Below, piece after piece: positions 1-12,052 of a stretch of 64,000 nt of DNA. The stretch comes from Candidatus Marinacidobacterales bacterium. Its GTDB lineage: Bacteria > Acidobacteriota > Vicinamibacteria > Marinacidobacterales > SMYC01. Numbering within the stretch: position 1 is the first letter of the stretch; each line of letters opens with the position of its first letter. The position numbers were made by a program, and so were the translations under genes. The DNA is taken from the NCBI GenBank assembly GCA_965237955.1, contig OZ250169.1, positions 1,152,001 to 1,216,000 of the forward strand. Reading direction: 5' to 3'. The notes beneath the pieces are model-generated. The model had not been told where the DNA came from. It saw only the letters and a program-made list of their open reading frames with translations, and ran no database searches.

Positions 1-1111
1 GACGAGCACGATATCCTTGAAGAAACAGCCAGAGCATATACGTCACCGTATATCGATGTTGTTCGTGCAAAGATCATTCTGTATGCCGCCGAAGGCCTGA
101 CGAACAAGGAGATTGGAGAGCGCCTCGACACTCCGCGACAGATCGTGAGCAAGTGGCGGAAGCGTTTTTTCGACCAACGCCTGGCAGGGCTGCAAGAGCA
201 GCCCCGCCGGGGGCGGCCCGGCCAGTTTTCCCCCCTCCGTCGTCGTCGCCGTAAAGGCTCTCGCGTGTGAGTTGCCGCACCAAACTGGACTGCCGCTCTC
301 ACGACTCAGCACCGCGGACCTCCGTCGAGCCGCGATCGACCGTGGGATCGTGGCGAACATCGGACAGACGACCATCTGGCGTTGGTTGAGTGAGGACGCC
401 ATTAAGCCCTGGACCCATCGTAGCTGGGTGTTCCCGCGCGACCCGGACTTCGAAGCCAAAGCAGCTCCCATTCTCGACCTCTACCAAGGACGTTGGCGTC
501 GTAAGCCCTTCTCTGGAAACGAGTTCGTCATCAGCGCCGATGAGAAACCCCGTATCCAGTGCCGGCTTCGCACATACCCGACGACTTCGACGGCTCCAGG
601 GCGGCCGATGCGCATCGAGCATGAGTACTCTCGTGAAGGCACGGTGAACTACCTTGCCGCATGGGATGTTCACCGCGCGAAAGTCTTCGGTCATTGCGAA
701 CCGAAGAGCACGATCGTCTCCTTCGAGCGCTTCGTCGGGCAAGTCATGCGTCGCAAGCCCTATCGCACCGCGAAGCGAGTCTTCTGGATCGTCGATAACG
801 CTTCCATTCATCGCGGCAAAGCTTCTGTCGAGCGCTTCCGGCAACAGTGGCCTAATTCCGTACTCGTTCATACCCCAACCCATGCCAGCTGGCTCAATCA
901 AGTCGAGATCTTCTTCTCTATCGTTCAAAGAAAGGTCCTCACCCCGAACGACTTCTTGGCACCCGACGACATCCCTTTCCATCTTTCCAAGTTCGAACGC
1001 TACTACGAGGACATCGCTCGACCCTTTCAATGGAAATTCACCCGCAAAGACCTCAAACAGCTGATGAAACGCCTTGCCGTATACGAACCTCGTCTTGCTT
1101 CCGCCGCTTGA
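1..1111 (+). CDS. IS630 transposase, split by a +1 frameshift at TTTTCCCCCC (226-235); 5' partial
   Basis: Frame 1 stops at 270. Removing one base at the T4C6 run gives FSPSVVVAVKALACELPH, continuous with ORF 272..1111. Confidence 0.85.
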
Positions 1112-1153
1112 CCGTTGAAAAATACGTCACCGAACTTTCGGGATAGCGTACTT
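1..1153 (+). mobile_element. IS630-family insertion sequence; left end lies outside the window, right end approximate
   Basis: HTH ORF in frame 1 (VVRAKIIL...VSKWRKRF...GRP) plus DDE ORF (SADEK, IVDNASIH, HASWLNQVEIFFS). Confidence 0.9.
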
Positions 1154-1161
1154 AGTGAAGC

Positions 1162-2859
1162 TCATTGAACTGTGGTCGTCTCTCCGGAGAGACCATTGAT
1201 GGATGGTTCGAATGTCCTCCCAAGGCGCTCCAGGACCTGTTCGGCCGCCCGGATGCCGGAAAAACAGGCTTCTTCGAACAGCGGCAGCCCGGTCGTGTCA
1301 CAAGAGGCAAAATAAACGTTCCCGAAAGGCTTCCTCCGAATGGCGCTTTCGCGGCCCCATATGATTCCCGGGCTCGGTCGGATCATGGCGTGACCCCACC
1401 GGTAAACGTCGATGCGGCTGACGTAACGCTCCAGGTCCGGATGGGCCACCAGCAGGTCCTGCATGATCACGTTGACCCAGTAAGGATGTTCTTCTTCCAG
1501 GAGCTTCTGACGAGCAAGGTCAAGCTCCTCGACGAACGGGAGATAGTAAACCAGGACAGATGGGTTGTCTTTGTAGACCTTTCGGGTTTGATGATCAGCG
1601 ACAATGTAGCCCAGGGATCGGCTACTGTAGAGTACATTGTCCCACGCGATCGAGACATCGGCGTTCGTGGGCAGCTCGCTCACATGGACACTGGCGGTCA
1701 GCCAGGGGCTGTAATCGCAGGATTCGATCGCTTCTACCTGAGGCCCGGGCAATCCATCGACCAGGAAAGGCGCGGTATGGAGCTTGGAGGCATGGATCAC
1801 GGTTCGGGCCGAAAGACTTCGATAGGTCTCACTGGGGGTGTCGAAGTAACCGACACGAGTGCCGGGATCATCGTTGTCGATCCGGAGCACCGCGCATCCC
1901 AGCCGGTATTGCGAGTTCGCCAGGTCTTGGGCCAAGCGTTGTATGAGAAACCCGTTCCCTGCGGGCCATGTCAAGGTGTCCGAAGGGTACTCGTTCTGCA
2001 GCCGCCGGTCATAGTATCGGCAGGCGAAGTAGTGAATGCCGGCCCAGGCCGACACGGTTGCCATCGTGCCCCCGTAATCGTCCCGGCAAGCGTAATTGAT
2101 CATCCAATCCAACCGCGGCGAATCCCATCCTTTGGAGCGGACGTAGGTTTCCATCGTAATGTCGTCGAGTTGACGAACCCGGGAGTCCGTGGTGCTGTAG
2201 CTCAGAGGGAGGACGAATGCGCGCCGGCCGTCGAAACCGCGGTAAAGGGTCCAGGAAAGCATGTCGTCCTCGAAGGCACGTATGGCTTCCCGTTCCTGCG
2301 TTGAGGCCCCGCTCAGCAGATCCCATTCGATCCATCTTCCGTCCATGAAGAGACGCTCCGCGGGCCATCGCAAGATATGTTGTTCGGGAATCCTCGGACG
2401 TCCGCCCTCGTCGTAGCCTTCGATTATTCCGAGGTCGGACAGGACTTCTTTGACGCAATCCGCTTCCGCGGGTGGAACATTAATATAGTGTGCCCCCCAG
2501 GGGAATTCGGTGCCCTCTGCGCGCCCGGAGGCGGCGGTGCCCCCAAGCCACGGCTGCAGTTCGAGGAGGATAAAGTCGTCCAGTCCGGCCTTTTTCAGCT
2601 TCCACGCCGCGCACAGCCCCGAAACGCCTCCCCCGACGATGGCGACGTCGTAGGTATGAGCTTCAGTCTTGGGAAACCGATCGCGGGGATGAGGTTCGCG
2701 AAGAAGATGCCCCACCTGCTGGTTTCCGCCCACGATTCGCCCCGGGACGTCGAAGGTCCTGGGAACCGAAGTGCTTGAATTCCAGCACGAAGGGACGACC
2801 GCCAAAAGGCCGCTGGTCGCGGATAGACGAAGAAAATCCCGTCGGGTGAAGGGCGACAC
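1162..2859 (-). CDS. Tat-exported FAD-dependent oxidoreductase (flavin amine/polyamine oxidase family), possibly a lipoprotein
   Basis: TRRDFL twin-arginine motif, VPSC lipobox, GGGVSG Rossmann motif, WGAHY and RWGHAM motifs; GTG start at 2859 chosen. Confidence 0.85.
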   Translation of the reverse strand: MSPFTRRDFLRLSATSGLLAVVPSCWNSSTSVPRTFDVPGRIVGGNQQVGHLLREPHPRDRFPKTEAHTYDVAIVGGGVSGLCAAWKLKKAGLDDFILLELQPWLGGTAASGRAEGTEFPWGAHYINVPPAEADCVKEVLSDLGIIEGYDEGGRPRIPEQHILRWPAERLFMDGRWIEWDLLSGASTQEREAIRAFEDDMLSWTLYRGFDGRRAFVLPLSYSTTDSRVRQLDDITMETYVRSKGWDSPRLDWMINYACRDDYGGTMATVSAWAGIHYFACRYYDRRLQNEYPSDTLTWPAGNGFLIQRLAQDLANSQYRLGCAVLRIDNDDPGTRVGYFDTPSETYRSLSARTVIHASKLHTAPFLVDGLPGPQVEAIESCDYSPWLTASVHVSELPTNADVSIAWDNVLYSSRSLGYIVADHQTRKVYKDNPSVLVYYLPFVEELDLARQKLLEEEHPYWVNVIMQDLLVAHPDLERYVSRIDVYRWGHAMIRPSPGIIWGRESAIRRKPFGNVYFASCDTTGLPLFEEACFSGIRAAEQVLERLGRTFEPSINGLSGETTTVQ

Positions 2860-2925
2860 TCCTGGATGATACCCCCACCTGCTTGAGAATCGTACCTCCT
2901 CCGCAGAATTTGTGGTCGTGTCTAC

Positions 2926-3200
2926 CCCGGAAAATTCACGAAATAGGAAAAGCAAAAGCCTCTACGTGACAGAAACTTGTGAACGAAGCGTTCACCACGA
3001 AGAAGGCTTTTTGCTGGACCGAAGATTCCGCAACACAGTGTTGGTTGTTTCCCGACCTTTCCCCAAAGAAAGTTCTCGTTCAGCTCGACGGGGATCGTAA
3101 GAGCTCAGACGGTGCCGCAGTGCTGTTGATGGCGATCGACGAGCGTCTGCAGCTGAGTCGGCGACTGCCGAAGTGTTGGCGAGATACCAGGTAATCCGGG
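2926..3200 (+). mobile_element. IS1380-family remnant (left end plus transposase N-terminal fragment)
   Basis: TQCWLFPDL..KKVLVQLDG..KSSDGAAVLL.AIDERL.LSRRL resembles an IS1380 N-terminus; begins CCCGGAAAATTCAC. Confidence 0.7.
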
Positions 3201-3268
3201 AAAGTTTTCTTCGAACAATTCCCGGAAGCACTTCACAGGGCTGCTTTCTGGGAGCAGAATACTTCGGT

Positions 3269-4378
3269 ATGCGCCCCCGCTGGATTGCATCGGCCGGTTT
3301 CGACCTCGGGCTCATCATCGGGCCGCCGGTCGCCGCCGTGCTTCTGGTCTTGGCTTTGCCGGCCATGCGGTCCGAGGAGACCCCGGTCTGGGGCTGGGTG
3401 CTCTTCGTTGTCTTCATAGACGTGGCGCATGTCTACGCATCGCTGCATCGGACCTATTTTCAGCCGGACGAATTCGCCCGCAGGAGACTCTTCTACCTGG
3501 CGACGCCTCTGGCGTGCTTTCTGGGAGGCGTCGCGCTCTACAGTCTCGGCTACCAGGTGTTCTGGAGGGTTCTTGCCTACATCGCCGTTTTTCATTTCGT
3601 CCGTCAGCAGTATGGCTTCATGATGGTTTACCGTCATCGCGCGGGTGAGCACTCCCCGCGCGAAGCGCTCCTGGACAAGTGCGCCATCTACGCGACCATG
3701 GTCTACCCCCTGGCGTTGTGGCACCGGGATCCGTCATCCCGAAACTTTCAGTGGTTCGTCGAAGGGGATTTCGTCCAACTGCCGGAATGGGTCGCAACCG
3801 GGGCCGTTGTCTTCTATACGGCATCACTGCTTTTCTTTGCGGCCCGCCAGGTACAGGTTTTCGCCCTCGCGGGAACCGTGAACTGGGGCAAGATCGGCAT
3901 CGTGGGCTCCACCGCTGCTGTCTGGTATGTCGGTATCGCTCTCCTGAATTCCGACTTTGCGTTCACCGTGACGAACGTTGTCGCGCACGGAGTCCCGTAC
4001 ATGGCCCTGGTGTGGCTCTACGGTCGCCGCCGCTGGGCAGGTGATCCTTCCTGGCGGGGAACGATTCATCGTCCCGTAGGCGTCGGTTTGTTCGTCGGCC
4101 TCTTGCTCGCTCTCGCCTACATCGAGGAGGGCCTGTGGGAGCTCTTCGTCTGGCAGGAGCACGCCGAGGTTTTCCTGGGGATGGTTTTGAATTTTGAAGT
4201 GCCTTCCATGGCCCTGACCATCCTCGTACCCCTGCTCACGGTTCCACAGGCGACACACTACATCCTTGACGCCAAGATCTGGAAGTTCGACGGTTCGAAT
4301 CCGAATCTCCATTACTATCTTTTCCTCGAGGGTGAGGTGCCCCAGGCTGGCTCGGAGTCGAAGGTCGGAGGTCGATAG
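3269..4378 (+). CDS. Polytopic membrane protein of unknown function with His motifs
   Basis: About 9-10 hydrophobic segments; DVAHVYASL, FHFVRQQYG, AHGVPY, THYILD. Confidence 0.8.
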   Translation: MRPRWIASAGFDLGLIIGPPVAAVLLVLALPAMRSEETPVWGWVLFVVFIDVAHVYASLHRTYFQPDEFARRRLFYLATPLACFLGGVALYSLGYQVFWRVLAYIAVFHFVRQQYGFMMVYRHRAGEHSPREALLDKCAIYATMVYPLALWHRDPSSRNFQWFVEGDFVQLPEWVATGAVVFYTASLLFFAARQVQVFALAGTVNWGKIGIVGSTAAVWYVGIALLNSDFAFTVTNVVAHGVPYMALVWLYGRRRWAGDPSWRGTIHRPVGVGLFVGLLLALAYIEEGLWELFVWQEHAEVFLGMVLNFEVPSMALTILVPLLTVPQATHYILDAKIWKFDGSNPNLHYYLFLEGEVPQAGSESKVGGR

Positions 4379-4512
4379 CTGAGCGAGACTCGCCGAGCGA
4401 GATTCGATGGGAGGGAACCTTCAGGGTAAGAAGGTATCGACCAGCGGATCTCGGTATCCTGACTTTGCCGGTGCTCGGAGAATCCGCTCTCCGACGGGGC
4501 ATGCCATCAAGC

Positions 4513-5214
4513 TCAAATGCCCATTTTCTTCTTGAGCTCAGCCAGCGAGTCACTGGTCTCGGCCGAGCTGGACGCTGCAAGGGTTCTGTCTATCTCCTCG
4601 TCCAGCGTTACGCTCGCGTCCGTCATTTCCCCGTAGGCCTCAGCAAGCGCCTCCTCCTCAACCACTTTGTCCTTCATCTTTTCCAGCAGCGCAATCGTAC
4701 CGGAGGAGTCGACGTTCGACATCTGCTGGTTGATTTTCCGCATCGACGTGGCGGTCTTGGCGCGTGCTCTCAAGGTCACCAGCTCGGTCTCGTAGCGGCT
4801 GGTCGTTTCCTTCAGCGTCTGCACCTTTGCCTGAAGCTGATCCCCCATACTCTTCTGCTGCTCGTGGTCCTTCTTCAAGGCACCTGCGCGTTGCAGGGCC
4901 TCGTCCTTCTTGGTCAAAGCTTCGGTTGCCAGACGTTCCGCTTCAGTTTGCTGCAGATCCCCGCTCTTCATTTTCTGGAGAAGTTGCATCGCTTTCCTCT
5001 CGTAGTCCTTCGCAAGCTTTTTCTGGTTGTCCGAGTCTTTCTTGAGACGAATCGCGATCGCTTTGACCTGCGCCAGACTCTGCATGGAATCCTGCAAGTC
5101 TTTCTTCAAGTCACGAATTCCCTGCTCGGTCAGCTTGATCGGATCCTCGAGCTTATCCACTAGAGAATGCGCCTCGGACTGCACGGTTTTGAAAATTCTT
5201 TGAAAGAAACTCAT
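4513..5214 (-). CDS. pspA: PspA/IM30 (Vipp1, bacterial ESCRT-III) family protein
   Basis: MSFFQRIFKTVQSEAHSLVDKLEDPIKLTEQGIRDL, long coiled coil, C-terminal LAELKKKMG. Confidence 0.92.
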   Translation of the reverse strand: MSFFQRIFKTVQSEAHSLVDKLEDPIKLTEQGIRDLKKDLQDSMQSLAQVKAIAIRLKKDSDNQKKLAKDYERKAMQLLQKMKSGDLQQTEAERLATEALTKKDEALQRAGALKKDHEQQKSMGDQLQAKVQTLKETTSRYETELVTLRARAKTATSMRKINQQMSNVDSSGTIALLEKMKDKVVEEEALAEAYGEMTDASVTLDEEIDRTLAASSSAETSDSLAELKKKMGI

Positions 5215-5232
5215 TTGTCAGCTCCCCTTCGA

Positions 5233-5631
5233 CTATCGGTGACTATATTCCAGCAACTCTGCGCCGTTCTCGGCCAGAGCAAGCTCCAGCGCTCGAATGG
5301 AGCCTTCCAACTCGTTACAATCCAGGTTTTCCAGCTGCAACGTATCGCGGAAGAGGACACGGCTACCTTCTTCGTCGTCGAGCACAAACGCTCCATGTAC
5401 CATCGTTCGGTTCATCTGGAGGAGGCGTTTGAAGAAATCTCCGGGAATCTCGGGGACATCCATGATGAGCTGTTCGAGGATGACGATCGGTGGTTCGCAG
5501 TCGATGATCAGGTTTCGAATTCCATTCTCCTCATCCTCCACGATGACCAACTCCTCGGCCTCATCCTCGCTGACGATGTTCATATCGATATCGAGCAGAT
5601 AGCCCTTGACCAAATCCAGGTTCTCGGACAT
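5233..5631 (-). CDS. YbjN/CesT-like chaperone-fold protein
   Basis: Acidic 132 aa; FKRLLQMNRTMVHGAFVLD..VLFRDTLQLENLD.NELEGSI; directly upstream of pspA. Confidence 0.8.
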   Translation of the reverse strand: MSENLDLVKGYLLDIDMNIVSEDEAEELVIVEDEENGIRNLIIDCEPPIVILEQLIMDVPEIPGDFFKRLLQMNRTMVHGAFVLDDEEGSRVLFRDTLQLENLDCNELEGSIRALELALAENGAELLEYSHR

Positions 5632-5633
5632 GT

Positions 5634-6010
5634 TTACTTCTCCTGTTTGTTTGTCTCGCTCTCCAGCCGCTTTTGCGGCTGTTCGTAAGCACTGTTCAAC
5701 CGTTGCGTCAGTTCATCGGCGATTTTTCGTTTCACGGGGTCCTTCGAGATCAGATCCGGATGATATTTCCGCAACAGCCGTTCGATGCTTCCTAACCGTG
5801 GCAAAGTTGAAACCATAGGACACCTCCGGGTTGGAATACAGCTCGGCCAGCTCCGGAACGACGCCCCGTGGCCGTAGTCGCGGCCTGCCGGCCACCGTGG
5901 CCCCGAGTTTAGCTCTGGCGTCCACGTGCCCGACCGACGCGATCCCGTCCGCCCGAGTCAGGACGGATCTCGGTTCGAATGAAGCGGATCACGCGGGTCA
6001 CCAGATCCAA
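5634..6010 (-). pseudogene. Decayed J-domain protein, paralog of 6674..7021
   Basis: RLLRKYHPDL...KRKIADELTQRLNSAYEQ in one frame and LAELYSNPEVSYG in another; N-terminus LDLVTRVIRFIRTEI after GAGGAA. Confidence 0.75.
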
Positions 6011-6584
6011 CGATTCAGTTCCTCAGAAACCACGTTCACGACGACGTTGCGTACCGACGATAATCATAACTCAATATTCGACAGCGATTCCATTCGCACG
6101 ATTCTCTCGACGATTGTGGCTCGTGCATTCTGCAACACGATGACCTAACCCTTCCTCTCGTAACATTTACGCAGTTTTCCCAAAACCTGGCGCACCATCC
6201 GACTCAGTAGCGAGCTCGTGAAGGACTAGGCGAACGACATCCTCATCCTGCGCGCGAAGCGGCAGGACGAGAAAGACAATGTCAGTACGGAACGCGGAGG
6301 GACGCGGCGGGTTTTGGACGCCACAAGCCTCCTTTGGCCCTTCAGGGGGGCGAGCAGGTCCATTTTGGCCAAAGATTCCGTTCCTCCCCAAAATTCGCCT
6401 CCCCTGAACTGATCCTGTCTGTCTCCCTCTCTGGAGCCTTCATCCTTTCGGCCACCTCCTCGCCCTCTAGAGTCTAATTTCTCCTATGCCAGGTGTCTCA
6501 TCATCATAGGCACAGAGGGGCGGCTGCAAGCGGTAGCGTAGCGGGCGACTGTCAAGTTGAACCTGCACTGTTTGTAGTCCGAAC

Positions 6585-6650
6585 ATCTATCGAGTACCAG
6601 GATCGGCGGCTCACAAGCAACCACAAAGTTCTTGATGCCGCTCTCCTTGC
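6585..6650 (-). pseudogene. Short remnant of a second YbjN-like gene
   Basis: ESGIKNFVVACEPPILVLD aligns to ENGIRNLIIDCEPPIVILE of 5233..5631. Confidence 0.65.
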
Positions 6651-6673
6651 CTTGCCTCTGGCGAATCACTTTT

Positions 6674-7021
6674 TCAAGCTTCTTCCAGTCTTTCTCGAAG
6701 CTGTTCATAGGCGTGGTTCAACTTCTTAACGAGTTCAGTTGCGATCTTCTGCCTCGCCGGGTCGGAACAATGGAGGTCGGGATGATACTTTCGCAGAAGC
6801 CGCTTCCAAGCTCTTCGCACGGTTGCCAGATCGGAAGCATAAGGGGCTTCGAGGTTAGCGTAGTATTCCGCGAGCAGGGGATCGACGTTGGGACTCTTTC
6901 GTGCCGTCGGTCCGTCGGATTTGTATCCGCGGTCAGCCGACCCAGACGCAAAGGGCGCTTCCTCACCGCACGGCACAGAAAGGGCACGTATGACCGTGAG
7001 CAGGCGCGACATCAAACTCAT
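6674..7021 (-). CDS. Small J-domain (DnaJ class C) protein
   Basis: YYANLEAPYASDLATVRRAWKRLLRKYHPD with intact HPD motif; RBS GCGAGG upstream. Confidence 0.88.
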   Translation of the reverse strand: MSLMSRLLTVIRALSVPCGEEAPFASGSADRGYKSDGPTARKSPNVDPLLAEYYANLEAPYASDLATVRRAWKRLLRKYHPDLHCSDPARQKIATELVKKLNHAYEQLRERLEEA

Positions 7022-7051
7022 TGTTTGCAACCTCGCCGCACGAGACTCCGC

Positions 7052-8056
7052 TTAGATCTTGCCGTCCGTGATTACGATCAGATGGTCGTTAGCCTCCACT
7101 TTGAAATCGGTCGCTGGGTTGGTCACGACCTGCTTTCCTCTCTGTACCGCAAGTACGATGCTGTTTCTAAGCCGCTTCATCTCCGAAATGACCTCGAGAA
7201 ATTCGTGACCATCCAACGCTGCGGGAAGTTGGACCTTCATGAGAGCATTGGCCGAGCGGGAGGATAGGACCTCTGAGAGGACCTTGGTAATGCCGTGATC
7301 GAGAGTGGCGCTTGCAATCAGGCAGCTGCTGAACTCGGACCCCACTATTACCTCATCGGCGCGGGCTCGCTCGCAATGTTGCACGTTCTCCTTGTTGACC
7401 AATTCTACGATTGTGTACGCCTCCGGGTTAAAAGTCTCCACGGTCAGTGTTGAAAGCACGACCTTTGCGTCCCTTGCGTTGGCCTCCAAGGCATCGTCTC
7501 CCAAGATGACCACTGTGGTCGCATCTTGTACGTTGGCACGCTTCAGATTTTCCTCGGTCACGCTCCCGGAGATGAAGTGCAGGTCGGCGTCGTCCACGGG
7601 TTTCATGTCCGTCTCTGCGAGCAGAACAATCGGTGTTCGAGCACATCGTTCGTCAGATCGAAGCTCATGGAGAATGTCCCGTGCTCGATGGTTCCACCCG
7701 CACAGAATAACGTGACATTTGAACTTGTACGTCCCCATACCGCGCTCTCTTTTGAACCGCTTCTCAATGAAGACACCAGCAACTGTCGCTGTGAAGACAC
7801 CGACAACGCCAATACCACAGAACATGAGTCCTATGCCGATGACTCGGCCCCACAAGGAGCTTGGGGTGATGTCTCCGTAGCCGACCGTTGTGAGGGTTAC
7901 GATGCTCCACCACAGCCAATCTCCGAAGGCCCTGTCAGGCTCGATGAGTTCGAGAGCGAAGGCACTGAAACTCGTCAAGAACAATAGAAGGAAGAAGATC
8001 CGGTATAACCTCTCGCGCCGAAGGAACTCCAAGACGTGCCTGAGCTGTTCTAGCAT
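7052..8056 (-). CDS. Two-TM potassium channel with RCK (TrkA-N/TrkA-C) domains
   Basis: Selectivity filter TTVGYGD, HVILCGW RCK motif, C-terminal TrkA-C VTNP. Confidence 0.93.
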   Translation of the reverse strand: MLEQLRHVLEFLRRERLYRIFFLLLFLTSFSAFALELIEPDRAFGDWLWWSIVTLTTVGYGDITPSSLWGRVIGIGLMFCGIGVVGVFTATVAGVFIEKRFKRERGMGTYKFKCHVILCGWNHRARDILHELRSDERCARTPIVLLAETDMKPVDDADLHFISGSVTEENLKRANVQDATTVVILGDDALEANARDAKVVLSTLTVETFNPEAYTIVELVNKENVQHCERARADEVIVGSEFSSCLIASATLDHGITKVLSEVLSSRSANALMKVQLPAALDGHEFLEVISEMKRLRNSIVLAVQRGKQVVTNPATDFKVEANDHLIVITDGKI

Positions 8057-8369
8057 CGACTCGCGTCCAGCGGTTGCCGTAATCCGACGCGCGTACTGTT
8101 ATGAAGGATTCCTTCTACCGGAAATCTACGTCTGTCGCAGAGCCCGAGAGCTGGGACGCGCAGCCCAGCGCGCGCAACAGGCGGGTACGAGATTTTATCC
8201 AAGCCCGAGGCTCGGTGCAAACGGGATCCGGAGGTGGCCGGCGCGGGCTCGAACGGCCGGGTGGCTCGGGGGGGAGCGATCGCTCTAGAGGTTTGGGTCC
8301 TTTTTAGCGCACGGGACCGGGCTCCTCGGAGCTCACTGGGGTTTGCGGAGGAGGTGCCGGCGGAGCGCG

Positions 8370-8760
8370 CCGTCTTCACTCGCTCGCCAGGTTTCTTCGG
8401 AATCATCGACGGCGCCACCACAACACAATCGTGACCCGTCTCTTTGACCGACGGTGAACCTCGTATCCACACGGTCCCGCCTCGTAACAAAACCCAACCG
8501 CCTCGCCGCCAGGTGAGAGTCGATGCACTAGTTTCAGAATCGATTTCTTCGTGTTTGCGATCACCCCCAGCGATTCGGGCTTAGACCGACCCGAGTACGC
8601 CACTGCTACCGCGATCGTCTCCTTGTGTACGTCCAGTCCCACGTAGCCGCTACACTCTCCCACGATCTGTCCTGCTTGATTATGGCTCTGAGCCGTCGTG
8701 CTAAATCCTCGAAAGCTTAACCCACGCTCTCAAGGTCGGGCAGGTTCAATACATTATGTC
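8370..8760 (-). mobile_element. IS110-family remnant: 5' non-coding region plus frameshifted, truncated transposase N-terminus
   Basis: YVGLDVHKETIAVA, FCYEAGPCGY, then CVVVAPSMIPKKPGERVKT in another frame. Confidence 0.85.
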
Positions 8761-8931
8761 TATCTTTACATGGACCAGGAGGAAGCGGACGCCTCGCCGG
8801 CACGGCCCTCCAGAAGAAAGAGGAGGGCGTCAACCCGGGCTACGACGCTCTCCACCGACCAGCAGACGCAGAAGAAGATGTCCGACCCAGGCGAAGGTGC
8901 AAAAGCTACAGGACCAGATCCGGCACTACGA

Positions 8932-9045
8932 TGCCTTGGTGCATAAATACAGGTAAGTCATTGATTCCATTGACTCTGCTATTTTTGCACCAAAAACGTA
9001 ACCTGCTGATTCCTTTAGAGTTGTCCAGAGTTATGCACCAAGGCA
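8932..9045. mobile_element. 114-bp AT-rich MITE with IS903-type terminal inverted repeats
   Basis: Perfect 15-bp IR TGCCTTGGTGCATAA...TTATGCACCAAGGCA, 14/15 identical to the ends of the IS5 copies in this window. Confidence 0.85.
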
Positions 9046-9540
9046 GGACTACGGTGCGGAGAAATGATGGCGCTCGAGTGGACCGACGTCGACTTCTCGA
9101 AAAGACAGCTAGTGGTGAGCCGGGCGGAGTGGAGAGGTGTGGTCACTGTGCCAAAGGGGGGGCGCTTTCGTCGAATCCCATGACGGCTCGGCTTTCCGAA
9201 GCGCTGCAATCGCATCGGCATCTTCGCGGTCCGAGGGTACTTTGCGAGTCAGACGGAAGTCCATTGACCGAGAGACGCGTTCAAGGATTCGTTGGTCGAT
9301 CCGCAAGACGCGCCAATCTCGAGAACGGAGGAGTTCATGTACTGAGGCACACCTTCTGTTCGCACCTGGCCATGCGTGGAGCACCGGCGAAGGCGATTCA
9401 AGAACTGGCGGGACACAAGGATCTGAGCACGACACAACGCTACATGCACCTGAGCCCGGCAGCGATTGACGAAGCGATTCGGTTGTTGGAGCAGCCCAAC
9501 CTGTCTCTCGTTTTGGAGACATTGTGGAGACGGCTTCGGG
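9046..9540 (+). pseudogene. Tyrosine recombinase/phage integrase, catalytic half only, frameshifted near 9178
   Basis: [46 protein letters not shown]; 5' part cut at the MITE. Confidence 0.88.
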
Positions 9541-9577
9541 AGCGAAAGGGAACTCGAAGGAGTGAAAAGGACTTAGT

Positions 9578-9605
9578 TGGTACCGGGGGTGGGAGTAGAC
9601 CCCAC
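9578..9605 (-). other. att-site scar: duplicated 3' end of a tRNA (Leu-like)
   Basis: Minus strand GTGGGGTCTACTCCCACCCCCGGTACCA resembles a tRNA T-arm, acceptor strand and CCA, with a degenerate T-loop; lies just downstream of the integrase. Confidence 0.65.
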
Positions 9606-9642
9606 CCCCAGCGTCGAACGGAAATGTGGTCGCCGCTCGCCA

Positions 9643-10503
9643 TCAGCCCGCTCGCTTCTCCCACTCCGTCTTCATGAAGGCGAGTCCGTCGCGGGCCAAC
9701 TGCTCTTCGCTCTCGAACATCGGCCGCCAGATCTTGGTCGCCGCTGCGAGGTTTGGGAGGAGCGCACCGAACGCCTCGATCGTGAGCCAGCCGTCGTAAC
9801 CGATCGCATGAAGGGCATCGAAGCTCTCGGCCCAGCGCACCTGGCCGGCTCCCGGTGTGCCGCGGTCGTTCTCGGAGATGTGCACGTGGGTGATGGAAGC
9901 TCCCACGGCGCGGATCGCCGCCGCGGGGTCCTTTTCCTCGATGTGCGCGTGGAAGGTGTCGTAGTGGGCACCCACGTTCGCTGCGCCGATGTCGCTCACA
10001 TAACGATCGGTATCCGCGGCGGTATTGAGTAGGTAAATCTCGAAGCGGTTCAGGAACTCGAAGGAGAGCGAGATGTCGGCCGTGGCTGCGTGCTCGGCGA
10101 CGGTTTGCAGGACCTCGACGCTGCGCTTCCACTCGTCGCCCGTCGGGCCGTTCCCGCTGAAGACGCCGAGGGCGGCGTAGAGAGGCCCAGCAAGTATCCG
10201 TGAGCCTGCCGCTGCCGTGCAGTCGACCGCGTTCTTCAGTGTGTCCACCGCGGCCGCGCGCACCGCGGGATCCGGCGAAATCGGATCCGCGTCGGGTGCG
10301 CAAGCCGCCATGCAGGTGCGTTCCATGCCCAACCCGGAGATCTGCTCCCCCAACTTCGCGAACGCAGCAGGATCGGGCGCGGGCCGGATGATCGGGAGCT
10401 CGAGGCCGTCGAAGCCCATGTTCCCCAGTCGCTCGTAGAGCGGAAGGTGCTCCACGGCCGTGGGGTCGTCGGTCCAGAGCATCAGGTTCATGCCGAATTT
10501 CAC
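9643..10503 (-). CDS. Sugar phosphate isomerase/epimerase (D-psicose/D-tagatose 3-epimerase family)
   Basis: [37 protein letters not shown]; RBS GAGGAG before GTG 10503. Confidence 0.9.

Positions 10504-10817: not shown

Positions 10818-12052
<1,235 letters not shown>

Follow-up and report, generated by a model that had tools for sequence, protein, structure and literature searches.

A class C J-domain protein with a PspA-type N-terminal helix: an optional partner of CesT–pspA operons and a candidate co-chaperone of PspA

The window analysed here is the whole 64,000-nucleotide stretch of contig OZ250169.1 (positions 1,152,001 to 1,216,000 of the forward strand, assembly GCA_965237955.1) of a Candidatus Marinacidobacterales bacterium. 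It harbours a pspA operon with a gene for a small J-domain protein, hereafter J1, whose N-terminus resembles that of PspA. The genes of the operon are located on the minus strand in the order K+ channel, J1, remnant of a CesT-like gene, broken J-protein gene (J2), intact CesT-like gene and pspA. Their positions in the window are as follows.

8056–7052, minus strand: RCK/TrkA-domain K+ channel, encoded upstream of J1
7021–6674, minus strand: J1, intact class C J-domain protein of 115 amino acids (helix 0 of PspA type, linker, C-terminal J-domain)
6977..7021, minus strand: N-terminal helix of J1, residues 1–15, with a pattern homologous to that of PspA/Vipp1 helix 0
6680..6880, minus strand: J-domain of J1, residues 48–114, with the HPD motif at 6784–6776
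6654–6586, minus strand: second CesT-like gene, a 23-codon remnant corresponding to CesT residues 32–54
6010–5634, minus strand: J2, broken paralog of J1, whose orthologues in related Terriglobia-titled records are intact
5631–5233, minus strand: CesT/Tir-like chaperone-fold protein of 132 amino acids, PF22550
5214–4513, minus strand: PspA/IM30, the bacterial ESCRT-III, 233 amino acids, PF04012 with 144 bits; helix 0 at about 5214–5152

The N-terminus of J1 reads MSLMSRLLTVIRA and that of the PspA of the window MSFFQRIFKTVQSE. The gene between J2 and pspA matches PF22550 (CesT_Tir_1) with 163 bits and YbjN with 24 bits only. It directly precedes pspA at 5214, as in a CesT/Tir–PspA dyad. The preliminary description of this locus quoted the N-termini of J1, J2 and PspA exactly, and its decayed J paralog, linker and HPD J-domain were confirmed.

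J1 belongs to class C of the J-proteins, being 115 amino acids long with a C-terminal J-domain and without a G/F region, zinc finger or beta-sandwich domains. PF00226 was matched at residues 52–110 (34.3 bits, cut-off 27.8), with HPD at residues 80–82; the Pfam scan of J1 gave no other family, PF04012 included, and none of the NCBIfam J-protein models attained its cut-off. In the AlphaFold2 model, calculated from a 65-row alignment, the helix at residues 3–14 is of low confidence, the linker is disordered and the J-domain is of high confidence, with helices at 48–56, 65–78 and 88–114. J1 is one codon shorter than the cluster representative P0004 (window position 6981), and an RNA-library contig has the longer form.

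With a family profile built from 11 close homologues, 1,976 proteins similar in length were retrieved at E ≤ 1e-12. The family layout comprises a conserved N-terminal helix, a variable linker of 21–84 residues (median 37) and a C-terminal HPD J-domain, and the mean frequency of the top residue over 65 rows is 0.53, 0.16 and 0.71 for these three parts, respectively. HPD is invariant in 120 of 120 aligned members, as well as in the 65 rows, and a DnaJ match at E ≤ 1 was obtained for all 120. Searching PDB sequences with the J-protein returned 54 sequences, DnaJ-type J-domains foremost, and the N-terminal helix was covered by none of them. A search of the Atlas with residues 1–24, DnaJ clusters left out, gave no usable match, and a PDB search with the CesT alignment gave none. 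Members of the family are annotated in databases as plain “J-domain protein”. No publication on a J-protein that bears a PspA-type helix or is encoded in a pspA operon was found in a search that had most subscription journals and the survey of Barriot et al. 2020 outside its reach. A class C J-protein carrying the PspA helix 0 is real, well conserved and apparently undescribed.

The N-terminal consensus of the family is S-[LIV]-[FLV]-[ST]-R-[LVI]-x-R-[ILV]-[LI]-R-A-[NRQ]-[LI]. Among 102 distinct N-terminal segments, Arg6 occurs in 99%, Arg12 in 82%, Ala13 in 86% and Arg or Lys at position 9 in 68%, so the helix is conserved in the homologues, as the preliminary description required. The motif features of helix 0 are all present, namely the N-terminal position, Arg6, hydrophobic residues at 3, 4, 7, 10 and 11 and a small residue at 13, in the same register as in the Vipp1 chains of the PDB. 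A matrix derived from J-protein N-termini only placed the PspA start of the window 7th among 198,374 candidate N-termini in the genome, and 48 of 48 distinct operon-PspA helices exceeded the genome 99.9th percentile; canonical PspA starts reached 31, above the operon-type PspA. With a matrix derived from PspA only, J1 scored 4.3 versus a genome 99.9th percentile of 1.4, and 74 of 124 representatives selected by their J-domain were above that percentile versus 0.4% of shuffles. These 124 are what remained of 144 new representatives, most of them matched via the J-domain, when 20 were dropped for lack of HPD, too short an N-terminus, lack of the family motif, or length. A narrower matrix, of operon-PspA starts, was less favourable and ranked J1 750th.

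Profile–profile alignment points in the same direction. Comparison of J N-terminal profiles with PspA residues 2–22 by hhalign gave probabilities of 92–96 and pair E-values of 6e-9 to 8e-7; 12 control helices, reversed PspA starts among them, reached a probability of 11 at most. Distant members match the whole helix, as seen from the start of the protein at locus L128, MSLGKRILDLARANLNALLEKA, and that of Vipp1 in PDB 8qfv, MGLFDRLGRVVRANLNDLVSKAEDP. The helices are cationic and amphipathic in both groups (n = 65 each), with a moment of 0.57 for J and 0.52 for PspA and a charge of +2.0 versus +1.3. The moment of J1 itself, 0.50, corresponds to the 93rd percentile, so amphipathicity by itself is modest, and the resemblance is carried by the motif, not by amphipathicity. 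It is limited to the first 15–21 residues, and the hairpin and core of PspA/IM30 are lacking in J1. On these comparisons the J helix is a homologue of PspA helix 0, resembling it far more than chance would allow. Published work is cited here and below from the available parts of each text. By itself, the PspA helix takes up its fold on E. coli lipids and binds them, for which R6 and R9 are required (bioRxiv 10.1101/2025.06.13.659447); the register of that peptide and of the J helix is assumed to be equal, as it is for the Vipp1 PDB chains.

The genomic distribution was studied with a J-protein search that gave 196 confirmed matches, the closest 80 loci of which were fetched. Their titles name Acidobacteriota, Calditrichota, KSB1, Latescibacterota, Bacteroidota/Chlorobiales and others, and kin among the loci are not independent. 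The order J–CesT–PspA was found in 74 of these 80 loci, which bears out the co-occurrence with pspA required in the preliminary description, and three further loci stop at a contig edge. In the phylum with Latescibacterota-titled records, all 153 genomes of which were searched, the J gene is present in 55 and CesT in 54 of those 55, the exception being at a contig end. Thirty-four of the 36 loci fetched from this phylum show J–CesT–PspA, and the contig stops after CesT in the other two. Five matches came from 350 sampled Acidobacteriota; four of them belong to the J family and all four are linked to CesT–pspA. Absences in both searches are soft, because only 27 (phylum-wide) and 12 (Acidobacteriota) candidates were scored per genome. 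Related loci also carry genes for DUF4178, DUF350, spermine synthase and the K+ channel, the last in 49 of 86 loci. The J gene is a new, optional partner of CesT–pspA operons.

Two genomes contain a single 274-residue frame joining J and CesT (L091:6118-6939 and L092:6234-7055), with the helix and HPD kept. A functional fusion was rejected, since these frames no longer encode the J-domain end, in place of which stands other sequence, as after a frameshift.

The two J genes of the window have different histories. J2 starts with the TTG codon at 6010 (xDLVTRVIRFIRTE), meets a stop at codon 34 (5911–5909) and ends at 5634; compared with intact relatives, it has also suffered a 12-nucleotide loss and three single-base indels. 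Its broken C-terminal frame recurs in two other genomes. Sequencing error was ruled out as the source, and the breaks are considered real, because an independent contig spans 4831–6517 without gaps and two genomes of another genus have a near-identical locus. A 33-residue peptide, mostly the PspA-type helix, could still come from the broken J2 (6010–5909), and RNA-library contigs span this stretch.

The block J2–CesT–pspA shows 86–88% DNA identity to operons that are intact in four records with Terriglobia or Acidobacteriota titles, and the matches of the channel and J1 lie in other records, at 65–70%. A recent tandem duplication of the J gene was ruled out, the only stretch common to J1 and J2 being one 39-nucleotide match and their closest relatives being different. 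The differing relatives and identities of the two blocks therefore indicate that the native front end of the operon is preceded upstream by that of a second, divergent operon copy, which is the source of J1 and the K+ channel. J1 has probably taken over from the broken native J2 in this genome. Neither this origin nor the CesT remnant at 6654–6586 was noticed in the preliminary description. A part of the window, 127–9045, is present in two genomes of another genus (L088 and L089) at 99.7–99.9% identity over 6–8 kb. The open reading frames (ORFs) flanking the locus are, as we take them from their translations, transposase-like (272–1111 and 10818–12052) and integrase-like (8931–9677). Together with the near-identical locus in another genus, these mobile-type ORFs suggest either recent transfer or shared binning.

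Other genes and features were also noted. A flavin amine oxidase-family gene (1162–2862, minus strand, PF01593) with a weak twin-arginine translocation signal accompanies the operon in 44 of 86 loci, and a gene for a 401-residue membrane protein without a Pfam match (3173–4378, plus strand) in 15 of 86; both would fit the reported polyamine link of these operons. RNA-library contigs span J1 and pspA in three runs from two studies, where DNA carry-over is possible, and the promoter scan gave four weak sites versus 1.3 expected. Three full Hsp70 genes, all of them outside the window, and three PF04012 genes are present in the genome. One of the latter, outside the window, is a short third pspA of 170 amino acids (G000:C1:6756431-6756940), adjoined by an ORF that is presumably transposase-like. 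The other pspA, also outside the window, comes after a large DUF3686/AAA-type ATPase (G000:C1:5622474-5631676), which is read in two frames of 1,091 and 601 amino acids, and after two upstream genes sized as in the Bacteroidota operons discussed below.

The J-protein is best read as a predicted membrane-targeted DnaK co-chaperone that serves PspA, and we put the probability of this at about one half. The evidence for it is the architecture of the protein, the homology of the helix, its gene's linkage to the operon within one large clade and the lack of a large operon ATPase at the J-linked loci of the sample. The J helix would bind the same stressed, anionic membrane patches as PspA, the flexible linker of about 37 residues would let the J-domain reach DnaK, and the HPD J-domain would load DnaK onto PspA, shifting the latter between monomer and polymer. 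The predicted elements of this scheme are that the helix binds membranes, that DnaK is activated and that PspA is its client, as well as which way the polymer is remodelled. Precedents exist for its biochemistry: HSP70B, CDJ2 and CGE1 assemble and disassemble IM30 in an ATP-dependent manner, E. coli DnaK can replace HSP70B and acts together with CDJ2 on IM30, and the cyanobacterial DnaK2 and DnaK3 bind IM30 (PMC6882379). The last two observations qualify the earlier statement that no characterised bacterial example is known; the available part of the same source names no dedicated bacterial J-protein.

A Vps4-like ATPase appears to be absent in bacteria according to a 2025 review, the available part of which mentions neither chaperones nor DnaK nor Hsp70 (PMC7619361). 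A 2026 review regards the control of polymer disassembly as unclear and chaperones as apparently taking part in it (PMC13051332). Ravi et al. 2024 describe it as unknown by what means a PspA that lacks an AAA ATPase regulates its assembly, and DnaJ, J-domain, Hsp70 and DnaK have no occurrence in the available text or in one supplement of that paper (PMC11237479).

A bolder form of this reading, which we hold only tentatively and would sooner doubt than accept, is that a substitute for Vps4 arose in bacteria. The membrane helix of the cell's own ESCRT-III would have been grafted onto a J-domain, the J-protein would slot among the helix-0 anchors of the polymer, and DnaK would strip the polymer. 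This would be an alternative to an operon AAA+ ATPase, giving bacterial ESCRT-III two interchangeable, ATP-driven recycling routes.

A DUF3686/AAA+ ATPase of 1,600 amino acids is encoded about 3 kb after pspA in six of seven J-less Bacteroidota operons. A search for it over all fetched loci found only those six and none at J-linked loci, 63 of 74 of which have at least 3.5 kb of downstream sequence. The claim made in the preliminary description that the J-protein acts in place of a Vps4-like ATPase thereby gains modest support, as J and the large operon ATPase share none of these loci.

Several observations weigh against the proposal that the J-protein is a co-chaperone of PspA. The contrast just described is built on six Bacteroidota operons that are related and belong to another operon type, and of 17 J-less pairs whose flanks are wide, 11 also lack a large AAA+ ATPase; therefore, polymers can turn over without either J or ATPase. 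The J gene itself is optional, being present in 21 of 33 sampled strong CesT–pspA pairs with the centre genomes left out (Bacteroidota 8/15, Calditrichota 12/14, Acidobacteriota 1/4), and no J match was obtained in 60 of 114 CesT genomes of the phylum searched throughout, with 27 candidates scored per genome. No diverged J was seen upstream in any of the 18 J-less CesT–pspA pairs checked, no family member was found elsewhere in three J-less genomes, and the J gene is missing at all 16 weaker CesT-like loci. Several J-less operons (L315–L318 and L325) have an ORF at the J position that we take to be receiver-domain-like. Three of the 80 close J loci stand alone. At the level of residues, position 9 of J1 itself is Thr, and the Phe of DnaJ helix III is aligned to Val in the family consensus. 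Co-variation between the J helix and that of the cognate PspA is lacking, true pairs being as dissimilar as shuffled ones (p = 0.13, n = 64). Moreover, helices 1–3 of PspA and Vipp1 bind membranes too (PMC13051332).

A sister clade, defined in the J-domain tree (support 0.94, midpoint rooted), adds to these points. In the sample taken, the best 80 of 459 metagenome loci, its members have the helix, which is even more PspA-like, and a pspA or CesT neighbour occurs in none of the 80, of which 35 have at least 1.2 kb downstream. The neighbours are genes for RNase E/G, PilZ, RsfS and a SPOUT methyltransferase. In five loci (L129, L131, L133, L161 and L186) the J gene is followed by one for DUF4178, known as a member of CesT–pspA operons, possibly a relic of a phage shock protein-type operon. 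The Atlas clusters nearest to the sister clade come from Myxococcota, Nitrospinota and Spirochaetota. The word “dedicated”, used of this adaptor in the preliminary description, goes too far for the family as a whole, given the sister clade, the many J-less CesT–pspA pairs and the lack of helix co-variation.

The first of the alternatives, which we consider unlikely, is as follows: the helix is merely an address for stressed membranes, DnaK is brought to other clients at the damaged membrane in a DjlA-like manner, and the linkage to pspA comes from shared regulation. The co-encoded K+ channel, the spermidine-synthase-like transporter and misfolded membrane proteins would be candidate clients. 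Retention of the helix without pspA in the stand-alone clade, the optional nature of J in the operon, the lack of co-variation with the cognate PspA and the frequency of the K+ channel gene all favour it. However, in several phyla J retains the slot directly before CesT–pspA, although the rest of the operon varies in gene content, and a generic amphipathic helix would not require the PspA-specific motif.

In a second alternative, the helix is a binding motif for the CesT-like dimer. The grooves of the dimer would hold PspA helix 0 and its J mimic, or both would compete for them, and CesT would link DnaK to soluble PspA. The position of J directly upstream of CesT in linked loci and the presence of CesT in nearly all J genomes of the phylum searched throughout speak for this arrangement, as do the J–CesT frames in two genomes. 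The CesT-like BacA is a chaperone-fold dimer of known structure, with an unpublished report of binding to its operon partner BacB (PMC10948618), and AtcJ binds its operon partner via a short extension (PMC6715715). Yet the stand-alone clade has no CesT neighbour, the fused frames are without the J-domain end and resemble frameshift decay, and the likeness of the J helix to canonical PspA starts is no weaker than its likeness to the cognate one. We regard this alternative as rather improbable.

That the protein is a regulator acting through its helix, capping or poisoning PspA polymers or competing for membrane sites with little involvement of the J-domain in turnover, is very improbable: deletion of the helix alters PspA/IM30 oligomers in a species-dependent manner (PMC6882379) and the helix III Phe is not conserved, but the J-domain is the best conserved part of the protein and its HPD is invariant.

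With the co-chaperone of PspA as the preferred reading, the J family is a concrete candidate for PspA polymer turnover with two separable handles, the 15-residue helix and HPD. The three-gene module can be reconstituted with DnaK, GrpE and ATP, which makes the question of PspA turnover directly testable. If the reading is true, the chloroplast CDJ2/HSP70B route would have its bacterial counterpart in this system, and the J-protein would be a co-chaperone whose targeting segment was copied from the protein presumed to be its client.

Among known systems, DjlA has a membrane address at its N-terminus and a J-domain at its C-terminus, an order shared by J1, whose helix is a predicted membrane address. 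In contrast to DjlA, J1 has a short, cationic, amphipathic helix (mean hydrophobicity −0.04) instead of a transmembrane anchor and a disordered linker instead of a folded middle domain, and it scores 25.9 with the NCBIfam DjlA model against a cut-off of 162. DjlA partners DnaK (PMC8215388). AtcJ of Shewanella oneidensis is likewise a short J-protein, first in a small operon and dedicated via a short segment; its 21-residue extension is C-terminal and binds AtcC, whereas in J1 the J-domain itself is C-terminal (PMC6715715). J1 scores 21.7 versus a cut-off of 150 for AtcJ, and the operon neighbours differ. The CesT–pspA core is common to the window and to the CesT/Tir–PspA dyad operons of Ravi et al. 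2024 (PMC11237479). CDJ2 with HSP70B and CGE1 is also a J-protein tied to an ESCRT-III-family polymer, VIPP1, with Hsp70-driven assembly and disassembly (PMC6882379, PMC13051332); CDJ2 is eukaryotic and its effect biochemical, while the link of J1 consists of the operon and the PspA-type helix. Vps4 of eukaryotic and archaeal ESCRT-III shares with the proposed role the ATP-driven turnover of a polymer; unlike Vps4, to which it has no homology, J1 would draw on DnaK as the energy source and would be targeted by a copy of helix 0 instead of an MIT domain.

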